From Leucoraja ocellata (taxonomy: Eukaryota), in assembly GCA_036785375.1 (NCBI GenBank), contig JAWMAR010000253.1, forward strand, positions 2,356,001-2,420,000: a stretch of DNA of 64,000 nucleotides, read 5' to 3'. Under the pieces are notes generated by a model, which saw only the letters and a program-made list of their open reading frames with translations, did no database searches and was not told where the DNA came from. The translations under genes and the position numbers were made by a program. Positions within the stretch are counted from its first letter, which is position 1; each line of letters begins with the position of its first letter. Shown in pieces: positions 33,637-47,764 of this stretch.

Positions 33637-36600
33637 AAACTGGGTTTATACCTAATCGACATTGGTTTTATAATTTGAGACGTTTGTTTAATATAATATA
33701 TTTGCATAGAACGACAATCGAGGATCTAACAATTATTTCTCTAGATGCAGAAAAAGCTTTCGACCAAGTGGGATGGGCTTATCTTTTCACAGTGTTGGAA
33801 AAATTCCAATTAGGAGAAAACTTAATTTCATGGGTGAAGCTGTTATATACTAATCCGACAGCCAGAATAATGCTTTCACCTAAATTTCACTTATCTAGGG
33901 GTAACATTCAAGGATGCGCCCTTTCACCAATGTTATTAGCTTTAGCCATAGAACCCCTTGCGGAGAGTATTAGGGCATTCACGGATATAATACTAAATAT
34001 ACCACCAATAAAATTTTGTTATATGCAGATGATGTACTTTTATACATTACTAATTCCCAAGTTAGTATCCCAAACACTATGGAACAATTTGGTTCCTTCT
34101 CAGAGTATAGAATAAACTGGAATAAAAGTGAAAATTTGCCAATAAAAGCTCAAGACCCTTCTCAACTCCAAAAATTTCCTTTCAGAATTGTTACCGAAAA
34201 GTTTAGATATCTCAGAGTTTACGTGACTAGAAACCACCCCTCTCTATTTAAAACAAACTTCCCACCACTAATTACTAAACTAAATGCCTACATTCAATTT
34301 TGGAAAACACTTCCTTTCTCCCTTATAGGGTAAATGCCATAAAGATGATCTTCCTTCCGCAACTCCAATATTTATTTTAATCAATACCGTTACATCTCCC
34401 TAAAACTTTTTTTTTTTAATTGATTCCACTATCACTCATTTTATTTGGGATTACAAAACCCATAGAATACACAAAAGACATTTGTGCAAATCCAAAGAAA
34501 ATGGAGGATTAGCTCTTCCTAATTTTCTTTTTTACTACTGGGTGACTAACATTAAACCTATAATATTCTGGTTTGGACGATACATGTCAACAGGTAAATT
34601 GGTTAAAAATGGAGAGGGAAGGTTTGATTCTTTTAAACTTTAATATAGACTCGATTCTCCTATCTCCAATACATTTGAATAAGTCAATGTATGAGCAAAA
34701 TCCGATAATACACAGTACTCTATGTATTTGGAAACAGTTGAAATTAAGTCTTAAACTGAGAAACTTGTATCTCCTTCTGCCTATTGCTAACAATCCCTCG
34801 TTTAAACCGTCTGCTTTAGGTATGGTGTTTGTTCAATGGAAAAACCTGGGGATTAACACCGTGGGAGACCTCTATAAGAAGGGGACTTTCTATTCTTTTC
34901 AAAAACTACAGGAGAAATATCACTTGAACGCAAACAATCTTTTTAGATACCTTCAAATCCGAGATTATGTGAAAACATATACACAAGATTGTCCTTTTAT
35001 GGGTCCAGATATATTAGATGATAGTTTGAATAGACATGCCAATACAAATAACTTGATATCTTACATTTATCACACTCTCTTAAACGTTGATACCCCACCT
35101 TCTGAGATTTAGAGGCAAGCATGGGAAGACGAGTTGGGTTTACCTATTTCAAAAGATATATGGGAGGAAAGCCTACGATACATACATTACTTCTTTAAAT
35201 GCCAGGCATTGCCTGATACAATTCAAAATATTGCATAGGTTATACTATTCAAAGGCCAAATTGAAAAAGATTTTTCCAACTGTCTCCCCTATCTGCGATA
35301 AATGTCACCTCCAAGAAGCTACCTTAACCCATTCCTTTGCATCCTGGATAAATATACAACATTTCTGGATGGGAGTATTCGATATCATTTCTAAAACACA
35401 TAAAAATTAAACTGGAGTCAGATGCAAAACTAATAATTTTAGGAATGTCAGAGGGCTGCTCTAAGTTAACGATATTCCAAAGATGTTTCCTTGACTACGG
35501 CTTAATAACCACGAAAAAACATATACTCAAATTCTGGAAAAAGACATCAGTTCCCACAGTGAAGATGTGGATCACAGAAATGACCGAGACACTACATTTA
35601 CAAAAAATAAGGCTTGTTTTGGCTGATAAATCAGATCAATTCTCCAAAACATTGTCTCGTTTCACTGAATTTCTTCAACAATAGAATGGTTGAAGACAAA
35701 TTTTAAACCGACGGGTGTGGGGGGTGGGGGGGGGGGGGGGGGGAGGATAGTGGGACATATCTGCGTTTTTTTTCCCTTTTACTTTTATTTTTCCTCTCAC
35801 TTCTTTGGCAGTTCAGGGGTCTTTTCCTCTCTCCTTTTTGTAACTTTCTTTTCTTCATTCTTTCGTTTTTACTTTTTTTCTCCGATTCATTTATCAGCTT
35901 ATAAAATGTTAAAACTGAAGCTGTACAAAATTTGTATAATTGTCATGCTGATTGCTTTATTCTTGTACAATTGCTTCTAATAAAATAAACATTAAAACAA
36001 AAATCTTTGAATTCCAATTGAATTCCAGTCGTGTGTTACTACCTGTCACGATATTCGCCAACATCAAGGAATGATGTGTGTTTAACTAAAAAAAACACGA
36101 ATATAAACGGCTTAGTTTAGATTAGTTTAGTGATACAACGCAGAAACTGGCCCTTCGGCCCAGCGAGCCTGCACGAACCAGCGATGCCCGCACATTTGCA
36201 CTATCCTAAACATATCAGGGACAATTTACACTTGCCAACCCAATTCACGTACAAACCTGCATGTGGGAGTAAATTGAAGATCTCGGATTCAACCCACGTA
36301 TGTCACGGGGAGAATGTACAAACTCCAGACAGCACCCGAGGTCAGGATCGAACCGCTGCAACTCAACCGCTGCGCTGGACAAGGTTAACAGAGACAGTTG
36401 TATGTGTTCTATCTCTAATTGGAGGTGCGATGTGGGTGGGGAAAGGATCACGGCCCATTTAAATTTAAATTTACACCCATGCTCCGACGTCAAAATTATT
36501 TATATTGTATATCTGTCGGCCATTGGACTAGAACATCAAGAGAGAGATCCGCCAGATAAACTCATCTTAATGCCAGGAATAGTGAGCCTGAATTGGCATT

Positions 36601-37879
36601 GGATTTGGACAGCAGAACATGCCTCCCATGTACCTTGTAAGTGCCATGACGGATGGTGGGCAGAAGATGTTTTGTTAATTTTTGGTGAAGGTGAGATATA
36701 GGCTGACGTTCGGGTGGGGGGGGGGGGGATTATTTAATAGGAACCTGGGGTGCAACTATTAACGCAAAGTGTGGTGGGTGTATGGAATGAGCTTCCAGAC
36801 GAGATAGGTATAATTCCAACGTTTAAGAAAAAATAGATAGGTTCAGAGGGACAAGGGCCAAACGCAAGCAGGTGGGACTAGTGTAGATAGAAACATAGAA
36901 AATAGATGCAGGAGTAGGCCATTCGGCCCTTCGAGCCTGCACCGCCATTCAATATGATCATGGCTGATCATCCAACTCAGTATCCTGTACCTGCCTTCTC
37001 TCCATACCCCCTGATCCCTTTAGCCACAAGGGCCACATCTAACTCCCTCTTAAATATAACCAATGAACTGGCCTCAACTACCTTCTGTGGCAGAGAATTC
37101 CAGAGATTCACCACTCTCTGTGTGAAAAATGTTGTTCTCATCTCGGTCCTAAAGGATTTCCTCTTTATCCTCCCTTGTCCAGGACTTCCCCAACATCAGG
37201 AACAATCTTCCTGCATCTAGCCTGTCCAACCCCTTAAGAATTTTGTAAGTTTCTATAAGATGGGGCATGTTGGTCGGCGGCAAGAACAAAACCTGCACAT
37301 ATTTTTAAAATACGTGAAAAACCTCAAATTTTACGAGTAGTAATTGTCCACGTTTGACATCGGGGTTTCTTAAACGTTGGGATAGTCCCAGCCTCAACTA
37401 CCTCCGCTGGCAGCTTGTTACATACACCCACTACATCTTGTGTGAAAAAGTTACCCCTCAGATTCCTATTAAATCTTTTCCCCTTCACCTTGAACCTATG
37501 TCCTCTGGTCCTCGATTCCCCTACTCTGGGCAAGAGACTCTGTACATCTAGCCGATCTATTCCTCTCATGATTTTATACACATCAATAAGATCACCCCTC
37601 ATATTCCAGCTCTCCAAGGAATAGGGACCCAGATGAGGAGGTTTTTCTTTCATCAGGGGGTGGTGAATCTGTGGAATTATTTGCCACAGAAGGCTGTGGA
37701 GGCCAAGTCAATTGATATTTTTTAATGCAGCGATTCTTGACTAGTACGGGTGTCAGGGTTTATGTGGAGATTACAGGAGAATTGTGTTAAGAGGGAGAGA
37801 TAATTTGAGTGGCGGATGGGCCGAATGGCCTTATTCTGTTTCTATCACATGACATTATGATCTTGTCAACAGGTATTAG

Positions 37880-38310
37880 AATCCCATCCTAACCCATCCC
37901 GCCCCGACTTAATTCCTCTTTTTTAAATGCAACCTGCGTTGGTAAGCCTTGCATTCCCTCTGTCAACGTTACCCCCCCCCCCCCCCCCCACCCTGCTTCT
38001 CTTGCTAATTTCACTGTCTGTATTCCTTCGCTATCACCTCGTCCCCAGCCAACAATGGACCATTGTGGGCTCCACCTTTCCGAGTGATCTATGCCGGCAC
38101 TGTTTTGTTCTGTACCTTCCCATACCTCAATATCCTTCACCCCCGATTCTGAATCTGATGAAGGGCCTCGTCCCGAAAGGTCACCTATACCTTTTTCTTC
38201 CAGAGATGCTGCCTGACCCCCTGAGTTACTCCAGCATTTTGTGTCTATCCTCTGCGTCCACTTTTGCGGGTTGTCTCATTATGATCTGAAGAAGGGTCCC
38301 GGCCCGAACC
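37880..38310 (+). mobile_element. Penelope-like element terminal region with two hammerhead motifs
   Basis: CTGATGA-AGGG..CCC-GAAA-GGTC at about 38155-38183 and CTGAAGA..CCCGAA at about 38286-38308. Confidence 0.55.
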
Positions 38311-39971
38311 GCCCCTTAGACTTCACACATTAGACTTTAGATACAGTGCGGAAGCAGGCTCTTCGGCCCACCGAGTCCCCACCTACCAGCGATGACCCCG
38401 TACACTATCACTATCCTACACACCAGGGACAAAGTTACAGAAGCGAATTACCGACAAATCCAGCACGTCTTTGTGCTGTGGGAGGAAAACCGGAAAACCC
38501 GGAGAAAACCCGCGCGGTCACAGAGAGAAGGTACAAACTCCACACAGGCCGAATCCGCAGTCTCCACATTGGAACCAGATTCTCTGGCGCTGTAAGGCAG
38601 CAACTCTACCGCTGCACCTCATCTATCCATGTACTCCAGCGATGCTGCCTGACCAGTTGAGTTCCTCCTGCACGTTGTGTTCTCATTATCATCTTCTCGT
38701 TTCGGGAAACTCCCGCGCCCCAGAGATTGGGGGCGCGTAGAGCGACTAATTGATTCCATCACCCCACGGGCCAGCAGCGGCCCTGTGGGCCAAATGGCCG
38801 CCTGCACGGCTGCAGTCAATTTGGGGAGGAAACAACAGATGTCTCACATTCAGGCCGATGCCGTGTGACACTGGGCTTGGCGGTGTATGGGGGAGGTGCG
38901 GGCGCCGGCAGGTCGCCCACTCTCACAGGCATTTCACCTCTGACCAAGTCACCAACTTGCATTAAGCTAAGCCCGTGGGCTGTCTGTGGGTAGATGACCT
39001 ATCTTTGACTCTCTAGTTGTGAGTCTCGCTGGCAAGTGTGCAGGTCTCATGCAGGTGTGCAGGTCTCATGCTCTCGCCGCGTTTTCGTGAGACAAAGCGT
39101 AGCCTTCACCCATCGTCCTCGCTACTAAATCGTGTCCATCGCTCTACATTCAACCAGACCCGATCGAAGTATGCAACATTATGATAGGCATAGAGGGGGT
39201 GGACAGTCAGAACCATTTTTCCAGGGTGGAAATGTCAAAGATTCGAGGGCCCAGCTTTTCATTCAGAGGAGCAAAGTTCAAAGGAGATTGTCAAAGAGTC
39301 ATAGTCACCCAGTGGGGAAACAGGCCCTTCGGCCCAACTTGCCCACAACTTGCCAACACCGGCCAATATGTCCTACCTGCCTGCGCTTGGCCCATATCCC
39401 TTTAAACCTATCCCATCACGTACCTGTCCAAATGTTTCTTAAACGTTGCGGTAGTCCCAACCTCAACTGCCTCCTCCGGCAGCTTGTTCCAAACATCCAC
39501 CATCCTTTGTGTGAAAAAGTTACTCCCCAGATTCCTATTGAACCCTTTCCCCGTGTCATTTTCGCACGGCTGTATGACAGCTTTTCCCAAAGATCTACCG
39601 CCCTTAATGTGATAAAGTTACCCCTCAGATTTCTATTAAACCTTTCCCCCTTCTCCTTAGACCTGTGTCCTCTGGTCCTCGATTCACCTACTCTGGGCAA
39701 GAGACTGTGCATCGACCCGATCTATTACTCTCATGATTTTACACACCTCTATAAGATCACCCCTCATCCTCCTGTGCTCCAAGGAATATAGACCCAGCCT
39801 GTAGCTCACACCCTCTAGTCCTGGCAACATGCGTGTAAATCTTCTCTGTACCTTTTCTAGATTGATAATATATTTTGTATAACATGGTGGCCAGAACTGA
39901 ACGCGATACTCTAAATGCGGCCTCACCAACGTCTTATGCAAATCCCCACCACGGGTGCTGTCTGTACCGAG

Positions 39972-40487
39972 TATAGCGGCAGATTTTTCAGATCTTTCAG
40001 GAAATTAACTCCCTAGCCACTAATTGGACGAGAGGGGATAAGGGAATATCTTCGGTACGCATGCAAGCTGCCTCAGAGACTTTCAGAGCTTCTACTTTCA
40101 TAAAGCTTCAGCACACAGTCTTTTAATGAATATTTTCTTTATTGTAGATATAAAACTGTAAGATACATCCAAGGTTTTCCGACTTGTTCCAGCAATCTTC
40201 TTCGAACTCCAGCGCATTGCTTCAGATACTAGAAAACTCCTCGTGTCTTCTTCTTCACATGAGGCTTGACATGCTTGACCTGTGGCTCGACATGGTCGAA
40301 GGATAAACCTTCTCCCTCTCCTGTCCAAAACGAATTCTCAACTAAAACTAACACGCAAGCAGTTAAGCTGCATAAACACGCCCCAAGACACGTCATAAAA
40401 TCCCACCCACATTATAACGGGCTGGCTAAAATTTAAAGGAACATGCCATCCACAATGACATGCAAAATAGGCCAAATGGCCACTACA
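39972..40487 (-). repeat. 3' LTR
   Basis: Matches 46175-46690 with two visible substitutions. Confidence 0.97.
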
Positions 40488-40502
40488 TACCGGCCCCTAA
40501 TT
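40488..40502 (-). promoter_or_regulatory. Polypurine-tract position (AATTAGGGGCCGGTA)
   Basis: G-rich tract abutting the 3' LTR. Confidence 0.6.
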
Positions 40503-40602
40503 GTTCCGAATACATAATGAGGCAATTACCAAATAACATCAAAAAAGTGGCCATTAAGGCTTAACATACATCAAAATCAAAATATCAGGGAATAAAACCC
40601 TG

Positions 40603-40678
40603 TGGCTCCCTCGTCAGGAAATCAAACCGCGATCGCCCGCATGCTAGGCGTGGATACTAACCACTATACTAATGAGGA
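40603..40678 (-). tRNA. tRNA-Asp-derived, degenerate tRNA-like sequence with encoded CCA (anticodon position reads AGC)
   Basis: TCCTCATTAGTATAGTGGTTAGTATCCACGCCTAGCATGCGGGCGATCGCGGTTTGATTTCCTGACGAGGGAGCCA aligns end to end with vertebrate tRNA-Asp(GTC), with about 12 differences. Confidence 0.85.
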
Positions 40679-40801
40679 AAAAATAGCATGCACTATATAT
40701 CTGCAATCACAATTCTTTCTCGACTCTTCCATCTTCGCTTTCGCCTTCTAGAAGCAAGCACAACTTAGTTATTGATCTTATTAAAACATTGTTTTTTGTT
40801 T

Positions 40802-43606
40802 TCAGTCGCACAATACGTACCAAACCCTGAACATCAGGCATGATTTCCAGTATTCTACCCCCCTTTCTGCAGGATTCTTCTCCAAGATACTTTCTGTTAT
40901 TTGTTTCTTTTCCCGTATTTTCATCAACAATCTTGTTTTTATTTTAAGAAACCAGGCTACCGATGTTCTCAATTTATTCCATGATGAAAAGTGGGTAATT
41001 AAACTATTCACGGCGTCATATGAGTTTTTTTCAATCACATTCACCGAAATGTTTTGTTTAATTTCCGGATCTGTTATAGAGATTTCAAATCCGAGTTCAA
41101 GCTTTGGCCATTCTCTACTTGGCTTACTAAGAAACTTTGGCCCATTGATCCATCTCTTGTTATTAAGAAAGCAATTTGCTGTTTGTCCCCTAGAGGCTTC
41201 ATCCGCAGGATTTTCCTTTGTATTAACATATCTCCATTGAGAAACATTAGTAGCTCCTAGTACAAAGGAAACTCTATTTGCAACAAATGTCATAAAACGT
41301 TTGCTTTCATTGTTAATGTATTTCAAAACCGTAGTACTATCGGTCCAGAAGGTCGATTCTTCCAGTTGAAATTGCAGTTCCTTTTTCAGCATTATGTCAA
41401 TTTTCACAGCTAAGACTGCTGCTGTAAGTTCCATTCTGGGAATCGTCATTTGCTTCAATGGTGCCACTCTGGCTTTTCCCATTACGAATGCAACATGCAC
41501 TCTTTTGTTTACATCTTGTAGTCTTAAGTATGAAACAGTCCCATAACCACTTTCGCTGGCATCCGAAAAGTGATGCAGTTGCGCATTTCCGATATTACCA
41601 ATGGTTTTAGGCTTTATACACCGATCTACCTTAAACGTTGACATTTTTTGGAGGTCTTTTAACCATTCTGTCCAACTGTGCGAGGATGTTTGAGTTATAC
41701 TCTCATCCCAACCAAGTTTTTCTCGACACAGATTCTGTAAAATTAACTTGGCTAGCAGTGTAAATGGTGCCAAAATTGGTTCATATACTGAACCAATCAC
41801 AGATAAGATACCTCTTCTTGTGCATGGTCGTTCCTGAATTGACAATTTAAACTTAAACACATCCGTTTCCACACACCAGTGCAGTCCCAGTGCCCTTTCC
41901 ATTGGCAAGTTGTCTTTGTCTAAATCCATCACCTTGGTTTCTTCGGCTCTGTCATCTGGTGGAATGCTTTCCAAAACAGCACGACTGTTGCTAACCCACT
42001 TGGTAAGTACAAATCCTCCCTTATTGCAGAGAGAGGTTAGGTGCTTCACTATTTGAATTGCCTCTAACTCGGTAGATACGGATTTTAGGCAATCGTCCAC
42101 ATAAAAATTATTTTTCAAAGTGGAAATTACCTCCTCTGGGAAATAATCTTTATTATCCTCTGCGGTTTTCCTCAAAGCGAAATTCGCACAACTTGGAGAT
42201 GACACTGCTCCGAAAAGATGTACTTTCATTCGGTAATCAACAAGGTCTTGCTGCACATCCCCTTCAGGCCACCATAAGAATCGCAGATAATCAATATGTT
42301 TACCAGTTACTTTCACTTGATAAAACATTGCTCTGATATCAGCTATCAAAGCTATCGGTTCTTGCCTAAATTTGATGAGAACTCCAAGGAGCGAGTTAGT
42401 AAGGTCTGGACCTTGCAGTAATTCACTGTTAAGTGATGTCCCTTTAAAGACTGCCGCGCAGTCAAAGACCACCCTCAATGTCCCTTTCTTCGAGTGGTAC
42501 ACCCCATGGTGCGGAATATACCAGATCTCTCCATCATCTCGATATAGTTGATTCATTGGTATCCTTTCAGCATAATCGTTATTAATCATATTCTGTAAGA
42601 AGGATGTATATTCCTCTTGGAATTTCGTGTTCTTAACAAATTTACGTTTCAAACCATGAATACGCTGTTCAGCCATATAGCGATTATTTGGTAAATTAAC
42701 ACCTTCTTTCTTGAAAGGTAAATCCAAACAATAATGTCCATTTTTCATCTTAACTGAATGGTTCATAATATCTAAGAATTTCAATTCTTCTCTAGACATT
42801 TCTTCATGTTCTTGGCTGGTACTTTCATTGAAGTCATGATTATATTGCTTCATTAACAGCTTTTCCAATTTACCTGTAGATATTTGGTTAACAGCAACAG
42901 CACGGCTATTCATTTTGCTGGTGCTTTCCTTATTCCTACACAAGGAGCCATAAATAACCCATCCTAGTAGGGTCTTCATAGCATACGGTCCATCCCCTTG
43001 GCTCCTAATTATCTGTACAGGTTCTAATGCTCTCAGGGCATTCGTTCCAATAAGTAAGTCAATATCAGAATTTATCTTTGTTATTTTGACTTCTTTCAGG
43101 TAAGGCCATTGCTGTAAGTCTTCACATCTGGGTACATTTTGACGACCAACAGGCATTGTTTCATGTGTGAAAACCTCTGAAATTGGAATAAAATTATCTT
43201 CATCCAAACTGGATATCTCCATATTTGTTATATAATAACTCTGGTAATCCTTTTCTTTATTCATGGTACGCATTTGAATTTTAACTTTCTCTCCAGTAAT
43301 GTCCAACCTTCTCATCAAATTCTCTGTGCAAAAAGTAGCTGAACTCCCATGATCCAGAAATGCATATGTTTGCAACACTACATTAGTTTCCCTATTTCTC
43401 ACTTGTACTGGTAAAATAGAGAAAATGCATGCTTTCTCTCCGGCCCCAATATGTGCAGTTACTTGAGGCGAGGTGATAGCATTAACATCCGCTGACTCCT
43501 TTTTCTGCTCAGTATGATCTGGCTCTTTCTTTACAGTATGAAGCACATCAGGATGATTCTGCTTACATTTGTCACAAACTAGTGGACACTTACAGTCTTT
43601 TACCAT
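40802..43606 (-). CDS. BEL/Pao pol region: Cys knuckles, aspartic protease, RT, RNase H; truncated before integrase
   Basis: AFLDHGS, YIPHHGV, RVVFDC, GPDLTNSL, ADIRAMF, YVDD, HHFSDAS, TIPRMEL, NPADEASRG. Confidence 0.95.
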   Translation of the reverse strand: MVKDCKCPLVCDKCKQNHPDVLHTVKKEPDHTEQKKESADVNAITSPQVTAHIGAGEKACIFSILPVQVRNRETNVVLQTYAFLDHGSSATFCTENLMRRLDITGEKVKIQMRTMNKEKDYQSYYITNMEISSLDEDNFIPISEVFTHETMPVGRQNVPRCEDLQQWPYLKEVKITKINSDIDLLIGTNALRALEPVQIIRSQGDGPYAMKTLLGWVIYGSLCRNKESTSKMNSRAVAVNQISTGKLEKLLMKQYNHDFNESTSQEHEEMSREELKFLDIMNHSVKMKNGHYCLDLPFKKEGVNLPNNRYMAEQRIHGLKRKFVKNTKFQEEYTSFLQNMINNDYAERIPMNQLYRDDGEIWYIPHHGVYHSKKGTLRVVFDCAAVFKGTSLNSELLQGPDLTNSLLGVLIKFRQEPIALIADIRAMFYQVKVTGKHIDYLRFLWWPEGDVQQDLVDYRMKVHLFGAVSSPSCANFALRKTAEDNKDYFPEEVISTLKNNFYVDDCLKSVSTELEAIQIVKHLTSLCNKGGFVLTKWVSNSRAVLESIPPDDRAEETKVMDLDKDNLPMERALGLHWCVETDVFKFKLSIQERPCTRRGILSVIGSVYEPILAPFTLLAKLILQNLCREKLGWDESITQTSSHSWTEWLKDLQKMSTFKVDRCIKPKTIGNIGNAQLHHFSDASESGYGTVSYLRLQDVNKRVHVAFVMGKARVAPLKQMTIPRMELTAAVLAVKIDIMLKKELQFQLEESTFWTDSTTVLKYINNESKRFMTFVANRVSFVLGATNVSQWRYVNTKENPADEASRGQTANCFLNNKRWINGPKFLSKPSREWPKLELGFEISITDPEIKQNISVNVIEKNSYDAVNSLITHFSSWNKLRTSVAWFLKIKTRLLMKIREKKQITESILEKNPAERGVEYWKSCLMFRVWYVLCD

Positions 43607-43647
43607 GTGCCCCTTCTTTAAACATCCATAGCAGATTCCATTCCTTT

Positions 43648-45543
43648 TTAAAAGTCCATCTTTTTTTCATATTTCTTTTCCTTAAATTTACGACACCATC
43701 TTATGGTGTGACCTACTTCATCACAAAATGGACAGAATTCATTCTTTCTGGTCGGTGCATCCTCTTTGGCACCACCCAACACCTTCTCAGGTATTATATT
43801 GGTAGCAAAATTGCTTTTCTTAGGCCCTGTCTTTTGTTTAGTTTTGACATAGGTAGAACCCTTATAAATTGCAAGTGGCTTGGCATCTTCAATAATCCCG
43901 CTGCATGAATCTGACATGTACCGTACTTCTCTTTCTAAATATTCCACCAGGTCTGGTAGCCTGGCTACTTGATTGCTCTTATCACGTAATTTACCAGCCC
44001 TATCTCTCCACTTTTCTCTCATTCTTCTGGGCAACTTGCTAATGATGATTCTCATATTACTTGAAAGATTAATTTCCTCCATATAGCCAAGATTTTTCAT
44101 CGAGCTGCAACATCTTCTCAGAAATATTGCATATTCACTCAATTTATCCACATCTTCTGGCTTGATTTCTCTCCAATCATGGGCCTTTTCAATGTATGCA
44201 TTCGCAATCCTCTGTTCATCACCAAAACGTTCCTTCAATAATCTTCTCGCCTTTTTATAACCCTGGTTGTCTGGCTCCATCTGACAACTTTCCACAAGCC
44301 CCTTCACCTTCCCTTGTGTGTACTTCACCAGAAACCGTAAGCGCTCTTCTTCATCCTCAACTTTCTTCTCTAATACCTCTTCCAGTGCCCTCACGAAAGT
44401 TTCATATTCTAAAGGATCTCCAGCATATGTAGGAATTTCAACTGGTGGCAAAATGAGAGATTTATTTCGTCGAGCTATAATCTCGTTGAATTCAGATTGC
44501 TTATGCAGCAGTGCCAATAGACCAACCTGGCTCCCTTCTCCTTGGTCCACTGGTCCTTCTCGAGTTTGTACGGATGTTCTTATAGTAGCTAGTTTCCGTC
44601 TAGCACCCATTTGCTGAGCTGAAGGTTCACTCAACCTATTTAGGTTTTCCAATCCAAGGTATCCTGTGGACTTTGACCGTGGAATCGATTCAACTGCCAA
44701 TTCACTCTGAGCAGGTCTGGCTCTCTGTCTAGAGCTTATCGCCTTTGATGATCCAGAGCTGCATCTATACCCTTCACTTTCCAGTATGTCCCTTCTGGCT
44801 TTAGCCACCTTCAACTTTGTATCTAATTCCAGTTGTTCCTGACATCGCGCCATTTCTTCTTGCTGACGGGCCATCTGTTGCGTCATCTCCTCTTGCTGTC
44901 GGGCCATCTGTTGCATCATCTCTTGTTGCTGTCGGGCCATCTCATGTTTTTTCTTCATAGCATCCGCTTCTATTGAGAGCGCTGCTAACTCAGCCTTTGC
45001 TCCCAAACGAGCAGAAGCCCTCGAAACCGAACTGGCTGAGCTACCAGATTTACGGCCTGATCTTTGTGAAGATACATTTGAGATACTATCTCCCGGTTCT
45101 ATTTCATCACCTTCTTCTTCTGGCTTAGTATCTTCTTTTCTGCTACCTTTACTTTTGCTAACTTGCTCTAACCATCCTTCTACAACTTCTTTGGATTCAT
45201 CATAATACTCCGTATTTTCACAATCCCACTTAAAATGTCTTTCACGCTCCTCTTGAGAACGCTCTGCCTCCAGCAGTATGTCCTGCTTCTCTTTCAGCTC
45301 ATGGTTAAGGCTACTTATCAGGCGTAATTTCTCTTCCACCTTGTCCTGGTTCTCTTCTGATTCCATGAGTGTCTTCACACTTTCAAACAGCCTTCTAATC
45401 TTCTTCCCCAACTTGTTCCTATCCAATTCAGCCTCCTTGAGAACATGACTTCGACCTTTCTCAGTGAGTTTAAGTTGTCTGGCTGGTCTTTCTTCACCAC
45501 CTAGTGGCTCTTCTGGCATAGCTCTGCCCTCATCTTCCTTCAT
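43648..45543 (-). CDS. BEL/Pao gag, separated from pol by a 1-nt frameshift
   Basis: 631-aa ORF with coiled coil, IEPGDSISNV, YAGDPLEY, LKERFG and a CPFC..GH..C knuckle. Confidence 0.92.
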   Translation of the reverse strand: MKEDEGRAMPEEPLGGEERPARQLKLTEKGRSHVLKEAELDRNKLGKKIRRLFESVKTLMESEENQDKVEEKLRLISSLNHELKEKQDILLEAERSQEERERHFKWDCENTEYYDESKEVVEGWLEQVSKSKGSRKEDTKPEEEGDEIEPGDSISNVSSQRSGRKSGSSASSVSRASARLGAKAELAALSIEADAMKKKHEMARQQQEMMQQMARQQEEMTQQMARQQEEMARCQEQLELDTKLKVAKARRDILESEGYRCSSGSSKAISSRQRARPAQSELAVESIPRSKSTGYLGLENLNRLSEPSAQQMGARRKLATIRTSVQTREGPVDQGEGSQVGLLALLHKQSEFNEIIARRNKSLILPPVEIPTYAGDPLEYETFVRALEEVLEKKVEDEEERLRFLVKYTQGKVKGLVESCQMEPDNQGYKKARRLLKERFGDEQRIANAYIEKAHDWREIKPEDVDKLSEYAIFLRRCCSSMKNLGYMEEINLSSNMRIIISKLPRRMREKWRDRAGKLRDKSNQVARLPDLVEYLEREVRYMSDSCSGIIEDAKPLAIYKGSTYVKTKQKTGPKKSNFATNIIPEKVLGGAKEDAPTRKNEFCPFCDEVGHTIRWCRKFKEKKYEKKMDF

Positions 45544-46159
45544 GATTTAAAAGAGGTCTTGGCAGATTGCCAAGTCTTTAAATTAGTCGAAAAAAGTCTC
45601 TGCTTCTGAGTGACTTTGTTATTATCAACAATTTCTTCCAAAACTAAAACATACTGATAATGTAGAGAACCTCTCTCTAATTCCAGGTGCAAAATAAATG
45701 ATGCTAATTCCAATGGAATGCTCCTTTATCTCTTTGATTCAAAACAATCCAAGGTCGGTCTGCCTTTCCCAGACACGCTGGAGAAAACAGCTTTTTGAGC
45801 TCTATTACAGAATTCTTTCAATTAAAACCGTAATTTTGATTCAAAAGGTAATAATCAATTCGTACTCACAATTCAGTGATACGTCTTCCGATGCGTTCCG
45901 ATGCTGTTGATAGACCTCAAGGCTCTTCCTGGCCGAGATCTTCTTCAGTTCCACGATTGGAACCAATCTTCTTTGGCTGCACCTCTCCTAGGTCTTAGCC
46001 TTCGTCCTGCTCTGGCCGCACCTTTCCTAGGTCTTAGCCTTCGCACTTCGATCTTCTGTCCCTATCTCAGGGACTGGTATTTACCCCCGCCGGAGGTTCG
46101 CTTTTACTTATCTTCTTCTGTCCCAATCTCTGGGACTGGCAATTACCCCCTGCCGGAGG

Positions 46160-46170
46160 TATCCTTCGAC
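46160..46170 (-). promoter_or_regulatory. Non-tRNA primer-binding site, complementary to LTR 46498-46508
   Basis: GTCGAAGGATA lies 4 nt downstream of the 5' LTR. There is no TGG, and the exact reverse complement is inside the LTR. Confidence 0.65.
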
Positions 46171-46174
46171 TTAA

Positions 46175-46690
46175 TATAGCGGCAGATTTTTCAGATCTTT
46201 CAGGAAATTAACTCCCTAGCCACTAATTGGACGAGAGGGGATAAGGGAATATCTTCGGTACGCATGCAAGCTGCCTCAGAGACTTTCAGAGCTTCTACTT
46301 TCATAAAGCTTCAGCACACAGTCTTTTAATGAATATTTTCTTTATTGTAGATATAAAACAGTAAGATACATCCAAGGATTTCCGACTTGTTCCAGCAATC
46401 TTCTTCGAACTCCAGCGCATTGCTTCAGATACTAGAAAACTCCTCGTGTCTTCTTCTTCACATGAGGCTTGACATGCTTGACCTGTGGCTCGACATGGTC
46501 GAAGGATAAACCTTCTCCCTCTCCTGTCCAAAACGAATTCTCAACTAAAACTAACACGCAAGCAGTTAAGCTGCATAAACACGCCCCAAGACACGTCATA
46601 AAATCCCACCCACATTATAACGGGCTGGCTAAAATTTAAAGGAACATGCCATCCACAATGACATGCAAAATAGGCCAAATGGCCACTACA
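46175..46690 (-). repeat. 5' LTR
   Basis: TGTAGTGGC...GCCGCTATA, with AATAAA at 46341-46346 (minus). Confidence 0.97.
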
Positions 46691-47764
46691 CCGAGTTTGT
46701 ACGTTCTCCCCGTGGCCGCGTGGATTTCCTCCCATACTCAGAAGACGTACAGGTTTGTAGGTTAACTGGCTTGGTATAAATGCAAATTGCCCCGCGTGTG
46801 CGGGGATCGCTGGTCGGTGCAGACTCGGTGGGCCTCTTGCCGCGCTGCACCTCCAAAGGTACGATTGCAAAGTTTAAGGAACATTTTAAGGAACATTTAG
46901 ACATGTACATGGATAGGATTGGTTTAGAGGGACATGAAATGTTGGAGTAACTCAGTGAGTAACATGCAGCATCTCTGGATAGAAGGGATGGGTGATGTTT
47001 CGGGTCGAGACCCTTCTTCAGACTGAGTATAGGGGGCAAACGCAAGAAGATGTGTCTAGTCTAGATGGGGCATGTTGATCTGTGTGGGCAAGTTGGGCCG
47101 AAGGGCCTGTTTCCATGCTGTATGACTCGTGTCCCAAATAACATTCTGAATTATCGGGATTTTAACTGTTTAAATCTGTTACCATCCTGCCCCGCAAAAC
47201 CCCCTCCCTGCTTAAATTTCACTCTAATTGCCAGTATTTCATCTAAAACGAATGGGGCGTCTAATTGCTATTTAATTACCACATAATTTTATCTGATTAC
47301 ATGCAGACTTGCTTCACGAATCGCAGTCTGAATTTCATTTCATTGGAAATTTAGTTTAGAGATATAACGCGAACACATGCCGTTCAGCCCACTGAGTCCA
47401 CGCCGACCAGCGACCCCTCGTACACTAGCATCATCCAACACACTAGGGGTAAGTTACAATTATACCAATCCAATTATCCAACAAACCTGTAGGTCTTTGG
47501 AGTGTGGGAGGAAACTGAAACGCCCGGAGAAAACCCACGCAGCTCACGGGGAGAACTTACAAACTCCATACAAACAGCACCCGTAGTCAGGATCGAACCC
47601 GCGTGTCTGGTGCTGTGAGTAGCAAATCTACCCGCTGAGCAACCGTGCTGCCCTGATATATGAATGTCCAGCATGGTTAATTTTAAATAGTTCGCTTGTG
47701 TTTCAGTTTGGTATTGGGAGTGGGGTATTGACATGGATAGAGGGCTGGTAGGTAGACGGGAAAC

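Follow-up and report, generated by a model that had tools for sequence, protein, structure and literature searches.

A BEL/Pao LTR retrotransposon in the window (the whole stretch of DNA analysed, 64,000 nucleotides from Leucoraja ocellata) carries in its 3' UTR a tRNA-like cassette which, in the reading considered probable here, is real, inherited, derived from mature tRNA-Asp and most likely carried along neutrally after capture by the enzyme of the element itself. This reading is based on what the cassette is made of, on the T-run left empty in sister lineages, on its confinement to one clade, on how fast it changes and on its recurrent partial loss. The window (1-64000) also contains what we take to be dense CR1/L2-type LINE ends and SINE-like repeats. 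The features of the element are the following:

39972..46690, minus strand: BEL/Pao LTR retrotransposon copy, 6.7 kb, integrase core deleted (protein domains, LTR pair, 5-bp target duplication)
46175..46690, minus strand: 5' LTR, 516 bp (LTR pair)
43648..45546, minus strand: gag frame
40707..43666, minus strand: pol (protease, RT, RNase H), with a break near 40860 and a C-terminal tail in a different frame until the stop at 40709-40707
40679..40706, minus strand: spacer, 28 nt, 3' of the pol stop (non-CpG distance 0.02-0.03; occurs in cassette-less lineages too)
40546..40555, minus strand: 3' UTR 10-mer complementary to LTR nt 4-13 (40484-40475), predicted stem around the polypurine tract
40488..40498, minus strand: polypurine tract (non-CpG distance 0.02-0.03; same motif in relatives)
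39972..40487, minus strand: 3' LTR, 516 bp (poly(A) addition at about LTR nt 367)

The window copy encodes PF05380 (E 9e-44, 149.8 bits against a cut-off of 22.3), DUF1759 (31.6 bits, cut-off 25.4) and RVT_1, and is flanked by a target duplication of 5 bp at 39967-39971 and 46691-46695. Protein relatives of the element carry PF05380, PF17921 and PF18701 together with an integrase with DUF5641; the best-named ones, about 70% identical, belong to bony fishes and to some bivalves, and no relative was detected in viral contigs. The integrase core is lacking in the window copy, other copies being about 1.3 kb longer at the break near 40860. It is also missing in many further copies (L003-L030, L043-L081), with several different shared breakpoints, and the integrase-less copies retain the last 50 codons and the UTR, suggesting non-autonomous sub-families. 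The 40 best-scoring UTR matches to the window family were all 99-100% identical and the 3' part of the cassette had 151 exact matches in the genome (3.44 Gb), the family being both young and large. These same figures bear out the proposal of the first-pass annotation that the cassette is older than this insertion and has been carried along within the element.

Other traits of the element were observed. The LTR ends in TA and not CA in 7 of 28 readable young copies (window 39972-39973 and 46175-46176; L002, L015, L021, L022, L025, L029), which occupy different insertion sites, pointing to a sub-lineage that integrates with a non-canonical end. The leader (46174-46040) contains two direct repeats with strong hairpins (fold z -3.4), older lineages having one unit, which possibly serve as a packaging or dimerisation signal. 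In the relatives, a UTR word some 55-70 nt upstream of the LTR pairs with LTR nt 3-16 and encloses the polypurine tract; pairing over at least 6 bases was found in 35 of 42 rows (the window and 41 relatives among L083-L162) versus 31% in cross-element and 12% in shuffled comparisons, and the modelled stem may perhaps present the plus-strand primer. A role of this word as a tether for tRNA-Asp was considered and rejected, since in relatives it changes along with the LTR start, as expected of a stem, and its match to tRNA-Asp is estimated to be so short that chance would produce it.

The cassette itself consists of the following parts:

40679..40683, minus strand: T-run at the 5' junction of the cassette
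40606..40678, minus strand: tRNA-Asp-derived body, 73 nt (match to host tRNA-Asp gene and to the Rfam tRNA model)
40671-40660, minus strand: A box, intact
40645-40643, minus strand: anticodon AGC
40628-40618, minus strand: B box, broken
40603..40605, minus strand: CCA of mature tRNA
40585..40602, minus strand: second copy of the tRNA-Asp T-arm, earlier called a terminator hairpin (14/18 identical to the host T-arm)

The first-pass annotation had described a 76-nt tRNA-like sequence in the sense of the element, located after the pol stop and before the polypurine tract and ending in CCA. This description holds for the minus strand at 40678-40603, with the pol stop at 40709-40707 and the polypurine tract at 40498-40488; the cassette begins 28 nt after the pol stop and about 105 nt separate it from the polypurine tract. 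The match to a host tRNA-Asp(GTC) gene covered 72/72 positions at 82% (E 3e-15), the next best match in the window reaching E 1.6. The roughly 12 differences announced before amount to 12 substitutions and a 1-nt insertion, and the change of the anticodon from GTC to AGC, the intact A box and the LTRs differing at 2/516 positions were each confirmed. As had also been stated, the CCA is not encoded in eukaryotic tRNA genes: in the 18 host tRNA-Asp loci inspected it never follows the discriminator. Judged from its sequence, the source of the cassette is a mature, CCA-bearing host tRNA-Asp. The CCA is kept in 35 of the 55 full cassettes and altered in 20; among parsed young copies it is kept in 24 of 25. 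In the youngest lineage, CCA and one extra base occur (window 40613-40603) where the closest older relatives (L192-L199) read CTA, the last 8 bases being identical to the end of mature tRNA-Asp, which may reflect recombination or another short jump.

Two statements of that annotation had to be abandoned. The hairpin behind the CCA, which had been interpreted as containing a Pol III-type terminator, is by origin a duplicate T-arm, 14/18 identical to that of the host and 17/18 in the older copies L055, L248 and L256, whose hairpins lack TTTT; the TTTT is a late change. The B box, previously regarded as near-intact, is without C56 and C61 (standard numbering; both invariant in tRNA B boxes) in 17/17 listed recent-lineage copies, and both are likewise gone in 25/25 parsed young loci. 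Lineages that lack the cassette show one T-run at the insertion site; in full copies T-runs border the cassette on both sides, also behind older cassettes. The 28-nt spacer behind the pol stop predates the cassette and is strongly conserved. A tandem duplication running from one GGGAG word of the tRNA to the other was discarded as the source of the CCA because such a duplicate would miss the extra CC of the least changed copies.

That the cassette is not a translating tRNA, as supposed earlier from its stem mismatches, was supported by its failure in tRNA models and by its broken stems. ARAGORN called no tRNA in the window, the Rfam tRNA score of the cassette was 19.6 against a cut-off of 29 bits, and an Rfam scan of 34000-43000 gave nothing at E<=1. 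Its folding was no better than that of shuffled sequences (z +0.74) and the minimum-energy structure, which resembles a cloverleaf, represents 8% of the ensemble. Older copies gave positive calls, 18 element copies among L043-L082 being named tRNA-Asp by ARAGORN and 7 of L163-L202 tRNA-Ala; element copies called in this way would inflate tRNA gene counts. A host tRNA-Asp(GTC) pattern (D arm and anticodon) searched against the 3.44-Gb genome produced 69 matches, among which the true genes were called with ARAGORN. Host tRNA-Asp genes were observed at L039, L041, L042, L071 and L082 and on contigs C368 and C1357, some adjoining tRNA-Met/tRNA-Ala and some in dispersed arrays.

The distribution of the cassette was surveyed on copies gathered in four ways, that is with the tRNA pattern, the integrase protein, the upstream flank and the downstream flank of an older copy. 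The integrase-protein set comprised 40 copies taken for divergence among the 150 matches listed, and the flank sets 30 loci upstream and 30 downstream. The 156 loci tested yielded 133 placeable and 113 distinct copies, host tRNA genes and truncated copies being dropped; 55 of these are full, 32 have a single T-arm (the acceptor 3' strand and CCA missing), 24 are empty and 2 partial. In a tree built from the flanks only (111 rows, midpoint root, L175 and L227 omitted), all cassette-bearing rows fall on one starred branch (100/99; 89 rows, one of which, L218, is empty), the cassette-less L180 adjoins this branch and 21 cassette-less rows fall outside; recombination between lineages may distort this tree. 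None of 80 relatives from other hosts matched host tRNA-Asp, the UTR being readable through to the LTR in 41 distinct ones, and the three weak relaxed ARAGORN calls obtained in relatives were all outside the UTR. The empty state can be considered ancestral because these foreign relatives are devoid of the cassette, the tree counts alone being unable to separate gain from loss. The outer empty lineages and the fish relatives have a common LTR start. One capture in the lineage of this genome would be the simplest reading.

Loss of the 3' end of the tRNA has been frequent. The single-T-arm state involves at least 14 changes on the tree, of which at least 6 are forced by starred branches. In 39 of 40 flank-chosen older copies the cassette is retained at least in part, 14 of the 40 lacking the acceptor strand and CCA and 3 more lacking further parts or all. 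Since the single-T-arm copies form groups at separate sites, elements without the acceptor stem and CCA must have kept transposing.

Constraint on the cassette was evaluated through the non-CpG distance of 4 young copies from 20 older full copies that had been chosen by flank (52 of the 55 full copies were aligned, three with long inserts being omitted). The distance was 0.20 for the tRNA part, 0.15 for the CCA and T-arm, 0.15 for the downstream UTR, 0.18 for the end of pol, 0.25 for the LTR, and 0.02 for both the spacer and the polypurine tract; such pairwise distances include post-insertion changes and ignore recombination between lineages, and a weakly selected short motif could escape them. 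The method thus detects constraint in the spacer and the polypurine tract and detects none in the cassette. Among the older copies only, the tRNA part was also more divergent than the UTR (0.14 vs 0.08, non-CpG distance). In the stems of the window copy three pairs are broken, two are weakened to G-U and none is compensated, and stem sites change faster than loop sites in both base classes. Of all changed pairs, 59 are still paired via a one-sided change, 10 are double changes and 73 are broken, so that more are kept than the 34% given by a crude random model. The double changes were examined as candidates for selection and rejected: all 10 (28 copies) are single-row and 5 involve CpG sites. 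None of the 12 changes of the window copy falls in positions 7-27 (A box and D arm), an AT-rich and CpG-free stretch; AT-richness and decay from G-C to G-U could account for this untouched stretch and the excess of kept pairs, both of which speak against neutrality, as does the persistence of the cassette in the most recently active lineage.

The first-pass annotation had proposed several functional roles for the cassette. Against them stand its absence from 24 of the 113 distinct copies (sister lineages) and the 32 copies without acceptor strand and CCA, a divergence at least as high as the rate of the flanking UTR, and no compensatory change in the window lineage. Absence in sister copies and neutral decay, named beforehand as the outcome that would speak against function, is thus largely what was found.

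Transcription was examined in four raw poly(A)-type RNA runs bearing the same species label, of which 1-6% was read in each and in which many copies are mixed and small RNAs invisible. They show that mixed copies are transcribed, with the cassette covered as deeply as the adjacent sequence; 8 reads of one run skip it. No pile of read starts or ends was found at the cassette in these four runs, a weak test at 1-6% read. A poly(A) site at about LTR nt 367 was indicated by 59 and 53 reads with loose oligo-T ends at 46324, the corresponding position of the 5' LTR.

The features involved in the priming of the element are the following:

46498..46508, minus strand: predicted self-primer, LTR nt 183-193 (exact complement of the primer-site position)
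46160..46170, minus strand: leader nt +5 to +15, the place of the primer-binding site, with no TGG-type tRNA site
46508-46498 with 46170-46160, minus strand: self-pairing in the window; the other self-pairing loci are L083, L084, L086, L087, L088, L090, L092, L094, L290, L102, L106, L119, L124 and L133

At these loci 10-12 bases pair, starting 4-6 bases behind the 5' LTR, with letters that differ per family; in the window, leader +5 to +15 pairs with LTR nt 183-193 at 11/11 bases. A TGG-type tRNA primer site was found neither in the window nor in 11 older copies, 3 readable cassette-less copies and 15 relatives. In the 11 older copies both pairing sides change together in several lineages, and decay cuts the perfect match to 5-8 bases. 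The relatives were assessed with a rule (TACA, then a 10-mer from +4 to +6 whose complement lies in the own LTR) which held in 15 of 80 (59 with enough upstream DNA; 13 start with GT; two represent one family). Over 100 shuffles it held in 1.7 loci on average and in 6 at most; the complement-only control gave 4, the reversed control 1 and cross-element pairs 8/210. The rule was framed after the pairing had been seen, and these controls gauge strength, not blind prediction. A readable 5' LTR end was available in 3 of 18 cassette-less copies, one pairing over 12 bases and two over 8, with the best match of one of the latter lying elsewhere in the LTR. Because the cassette-less lineages and the foreign relatives have no tRNA primer site either, its lack predates the cassette. 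In folding, RNA beginning at LTR nt 181 gives the duplex and RNA beginning at nt 138 a competing local hairpin; the poly(A)-type runs, data unable to show transcript starts, contained no start pile in the LTR. The primer complement is contiguous in the LTR and no spliced primer is needed. By this analysis the element would prime with a piece of its own RNA, as does Tf1, whose primer has 11 bases, and tRNA would not be its primer. The earlier idea that the cassette is a relic of an element which is no longer tRNA-primed stands as far as the missing tRNA primer site is concerned and falls in the rest, since the loss preceded the cassette and the cassette pairs with the primer-site region over only 6 bases.

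How the enzyme may have reached the tRNA is illustrated by one locus:

L270, 1490-1831 (contig C489, about 1228630-1228970): 3' part of tRNA-Asp with CCA joined to an R-U5-leader fragment

The 3' end of tRNA-Asp with CCA (18 bases) has 9 genomic matches, all in this BEL/Pao family and eight of them cassettes. At L270 the order is unrelated DNA, host-identical tRNA-Asp from position 47 to the end with CCA, the LTR through U5, 8 leader bases and unrelated DNA, with no evident target duplication. The LTR part, which is 92-93% like L064 and L078, starts at the base directly behind the predicted primer segment (one locus). Two cassette changes shared by all 16 copies closest to L270 in the LTR are absent from its tRNA piece, so L270 represents a capture separate from the cassette. 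This tRNA piece and the second T-arm of the cassette start at the same tRNA position, 47-48. A derivation of L270 by deletion of an ordinary copy would need three separate breaks plus a cassette from another lineage. We infer that L270 is minus-strand strong-stop DNA which, having run off the 5' end of its template, jumped to the CCA end of the tRNA, was extended as far as position 47 and then became inserted at a break, a reading that accounts for all three borders of the locus. Three pattern searches for further tRNA-to-R joints revealed no second case, the first giving L270 only; the other two gave 1 and 4 matches, all in unrelated sequence (the control also gave 4 for the 4-match search).

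Short repeats at the start of R in the L270 lineage blur the exact unit that was joined. Short variable repeats directly behind the predicted primer segment were also observed in the window (46497-46450) and in L067, L070, L183, L192, L193, L195, L197, L199 and L237. GAGCCA, the last 6 bases of mature tRNA-Asp, occurs among the R-start repeats in 6 of 86 parsed copies, and GCCA precedes a repeat unit in 10 of 86. These GAGCCA inserts may represent short jumps onto tRNA-Asp, perhaps in a single event, or perhaps chance.

For the cassette, it can be proposed that during minus-strand synthesis the RT would leave the element RNA at the U-run, copy tRNA-Asp from about position 67 back to 48, jump to the CCA end, copy the tRNA through to position 1 and return to the U-run, in one event or two. 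The direct repeat of the T-arm would then cause the repeated deletions. The cassette would thereby be the work of the element's enzyme, through a jump like that of L270. A bolder hypothesis, put forward tentatively and with rather more doubt than confidence, is that the clade uses 10-12 bases cut from its own transcript as a primer and that its RT jumps specifically to the CCA of tRNA-Asp, the cassette, L270 and the GAGCCA inserts being three fossils of this habit. On this hypothesis, to which the same reserve applies, the jumps would take place where the RT runs off the RNA at its cut 5' end or is stalled by a U-run, and L270 would record the self-priming cut site.

Among the alternatives, it is conceivable, if unlikely, that a LINE enzyme (CR1/L2 type, abundant in the window) copied a mature tRNA-Asp into a genomic copy that later became a source copy, the subsequent fate being equally neutral. 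LINEs are able to retropose tRNAs, and some of the products are 3'-truncated 'tailless' forms whose priming relies on short complementarity, as described in the available part of PMC5322556, and the single-T-arm form does resemble a 5'-complete, 3'-truncated tRNA; however, the cassette has neither an 8-35-nt target duplication nor an oligo(A), just a 4-7-nt T-run either side, the perfect CCA-ended 3' ends of tRNA-Asp are confined to this family (9/9), and L270 links the tRNA end to a fragment shaped like the strong-stop DNA of the element. A quite improbable explanation is that the cassette was once useful as a Pol III promoter or TFIIIC site which kept the 3' LTR open or insulated, aided the spread of the element and has since decayed. 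The large number of cassette-bearing copies and the 39/40 flank-chosen older ones with at least a part, the single-T-arm copies that hold both boxes in place followed by the T-run, and the A and B boxes kept by Helenus in its LTRs (PMC10886601, in the text accessible) would agree with such a past. Nevertheless, in 23 flank-chosen older full copies the non-CpG change in the A box (0.08) and B box (0.10) is about that found elsewhere (0.11), the host B box is kept in only 6 of the 23, and the youngest lineage, which is still expanding, has a dead B box (25/25 parsed).

It is very improbable that the cassette works at present as an RNA signal, whether as a site for RNase P or RNase Z or as a decoy resembling a tRNA. 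The cloverleaf-like minimum-energy fold, the CCA kept in nearly all parsed young copies (24/25) and the transcription of the region from some copies could be read in this sense, but the fold is no better than shuffles (z +0.74) and takes up 8% of the ensemble, the stems are broken and uncompensated, the acceptor strand and CCA were lost repeatedly, and the reads do not pile up at the cassette in the four runs, weak as that test is. Besides, according to the replication scheme, cutting at the cassette would separate the genomic RNA from its 3' R region. A present-day function of any kind is, on this evidence, very unlikely. That the cassette is the leftover of, or a stand-in for, a tRNA primer is barely conceivable: the element has indeed no tRNA primer-binding site, yet the cassette-less lineages and foreign relatives likewise lack the site and show the same self-pairing, the cassette is complementary to the leader start over 6 bases at most, its 3' end to any part of the element over no more than 7, and its orientation is sense, opposite to what is expected for a copied primer site. 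Capture by the enzyme of the element, followed by neutral inheritance, is the reading retained here.

The passenger cassette itself matters little, but it offers a clean, dated case in which a mature tRNA was captured whole by an LTR retrotransposon, since one genome holds the empty site, near-perfect early copies, repeated deletions and the decayed young form. L270 is a possible natural footprint of the predicted cut, which makes the mechanism directly testable. mascRNA-type processing signals have a conserved cloverleaf which is cut by RNase P and RNase Z; the cassette displays no such conserved cloverleaf. In yeast, pieces of Ty1 cDNA are reportedly captured at chromosome breaks; L270 is similar in being an R-U5-primer-site fragment without target duplication, here extended onto a tRNA, and it differs in that the tRNA would have served as a template, reached by a jump when the strong-stop DNA was extended at its far end, and not as the primer.

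The likeness of the element to BEL/Pao (Belpaoviridae) resides in a Gag with DUF1759, PF05380, the RT, the DUF5641 integrase of its relatives, the LTRs, the polypurine tract and the 5-bp duplication. In the part of the ICTV profile available (PMC8742986), members of Belpaoviridae have an 18-nt primer site for host tRNA-Arg or tRNA-Gly, that is, they are tRNA-primed, whereas the window clade has no tRNA site and pairs with its own LTR; a tRNA copy in the UTR does not appear in that part of the profile either. The placement in BEL/Pao thus rests on the proteins because the primer site is not of the type described. A family listed as tRNA-primed (PMC8742986, same excerpt) therefore appears to include a widespread aquatic clade with a covarying self-priming signature. 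Self-priming is known from Tf1/Tf2, Tj1, Tf1/sushi, Tcn1 and TAR groups, belonging to Ty3/gypsy or Ty1/copia in the sections available of PMC4600332 and PMC6317226. As far as these sections go, the window clade shares with Tf1 and Tj1 the lack of a tRNA site and a primer-site position complementary to the own LTR (over 10-12 bases in this clade), and differs in being BEL/Pao, in a pairing that starts 4-6 bases behind the LTR, and in a start and cleavage that are predicted only. No description of a tRNA copy in a BEL/Pao UTR or of BEL/Pao self-priming was found in the literature covered, subscription papers, Repbase entries and supplements lying beyond its scope; by word counts PMC554778 and PMC3118150 contain no occurrence of PBS, priming or tRNA, and PMC3601003 mentions self-priming once, outside the passages covered.

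Regarding the cassette, Helenus (tRNA), like Cassandra and Ajax (5S rRNA), is a miniature element without coding capacity that has a small-RNA gene inside both LTRs and conserved boxes, as presented in the accessible text of PMC10886601. On that text, the likeness is that of an LTR element with a copy of a host small-RNA gene that does not pair with the primer site; compared to Helenus and TRIMp3, the window cassette is single, lies outside the LTRs in a gag-pol element, ends in CCA and has decaying boxes. Tailless tRNA retropseudogenes, in turn, are L1-made, 3'-truncated and bordered by 8-35-nt target duplications in the available portion of PMC5322556. Within the terms of that portion, the cassette shares with them a tRNA copy that is 5'-complete and has no oligo(A) tail, and differs in continuing through CCA into a second T-arm and in a T-run of mostly 4-7 nt in place of the 8-35-nt duplication. 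The tailless, 5'-complete and 3'-truncated form matches the single-T-arm state (32/113) and not the full state (55/113), and the unrooted counts are compatible with either state having come first. Altogether, the cassette is a member of neither the Helenus-type elements nor the tailless retropseudogenes.
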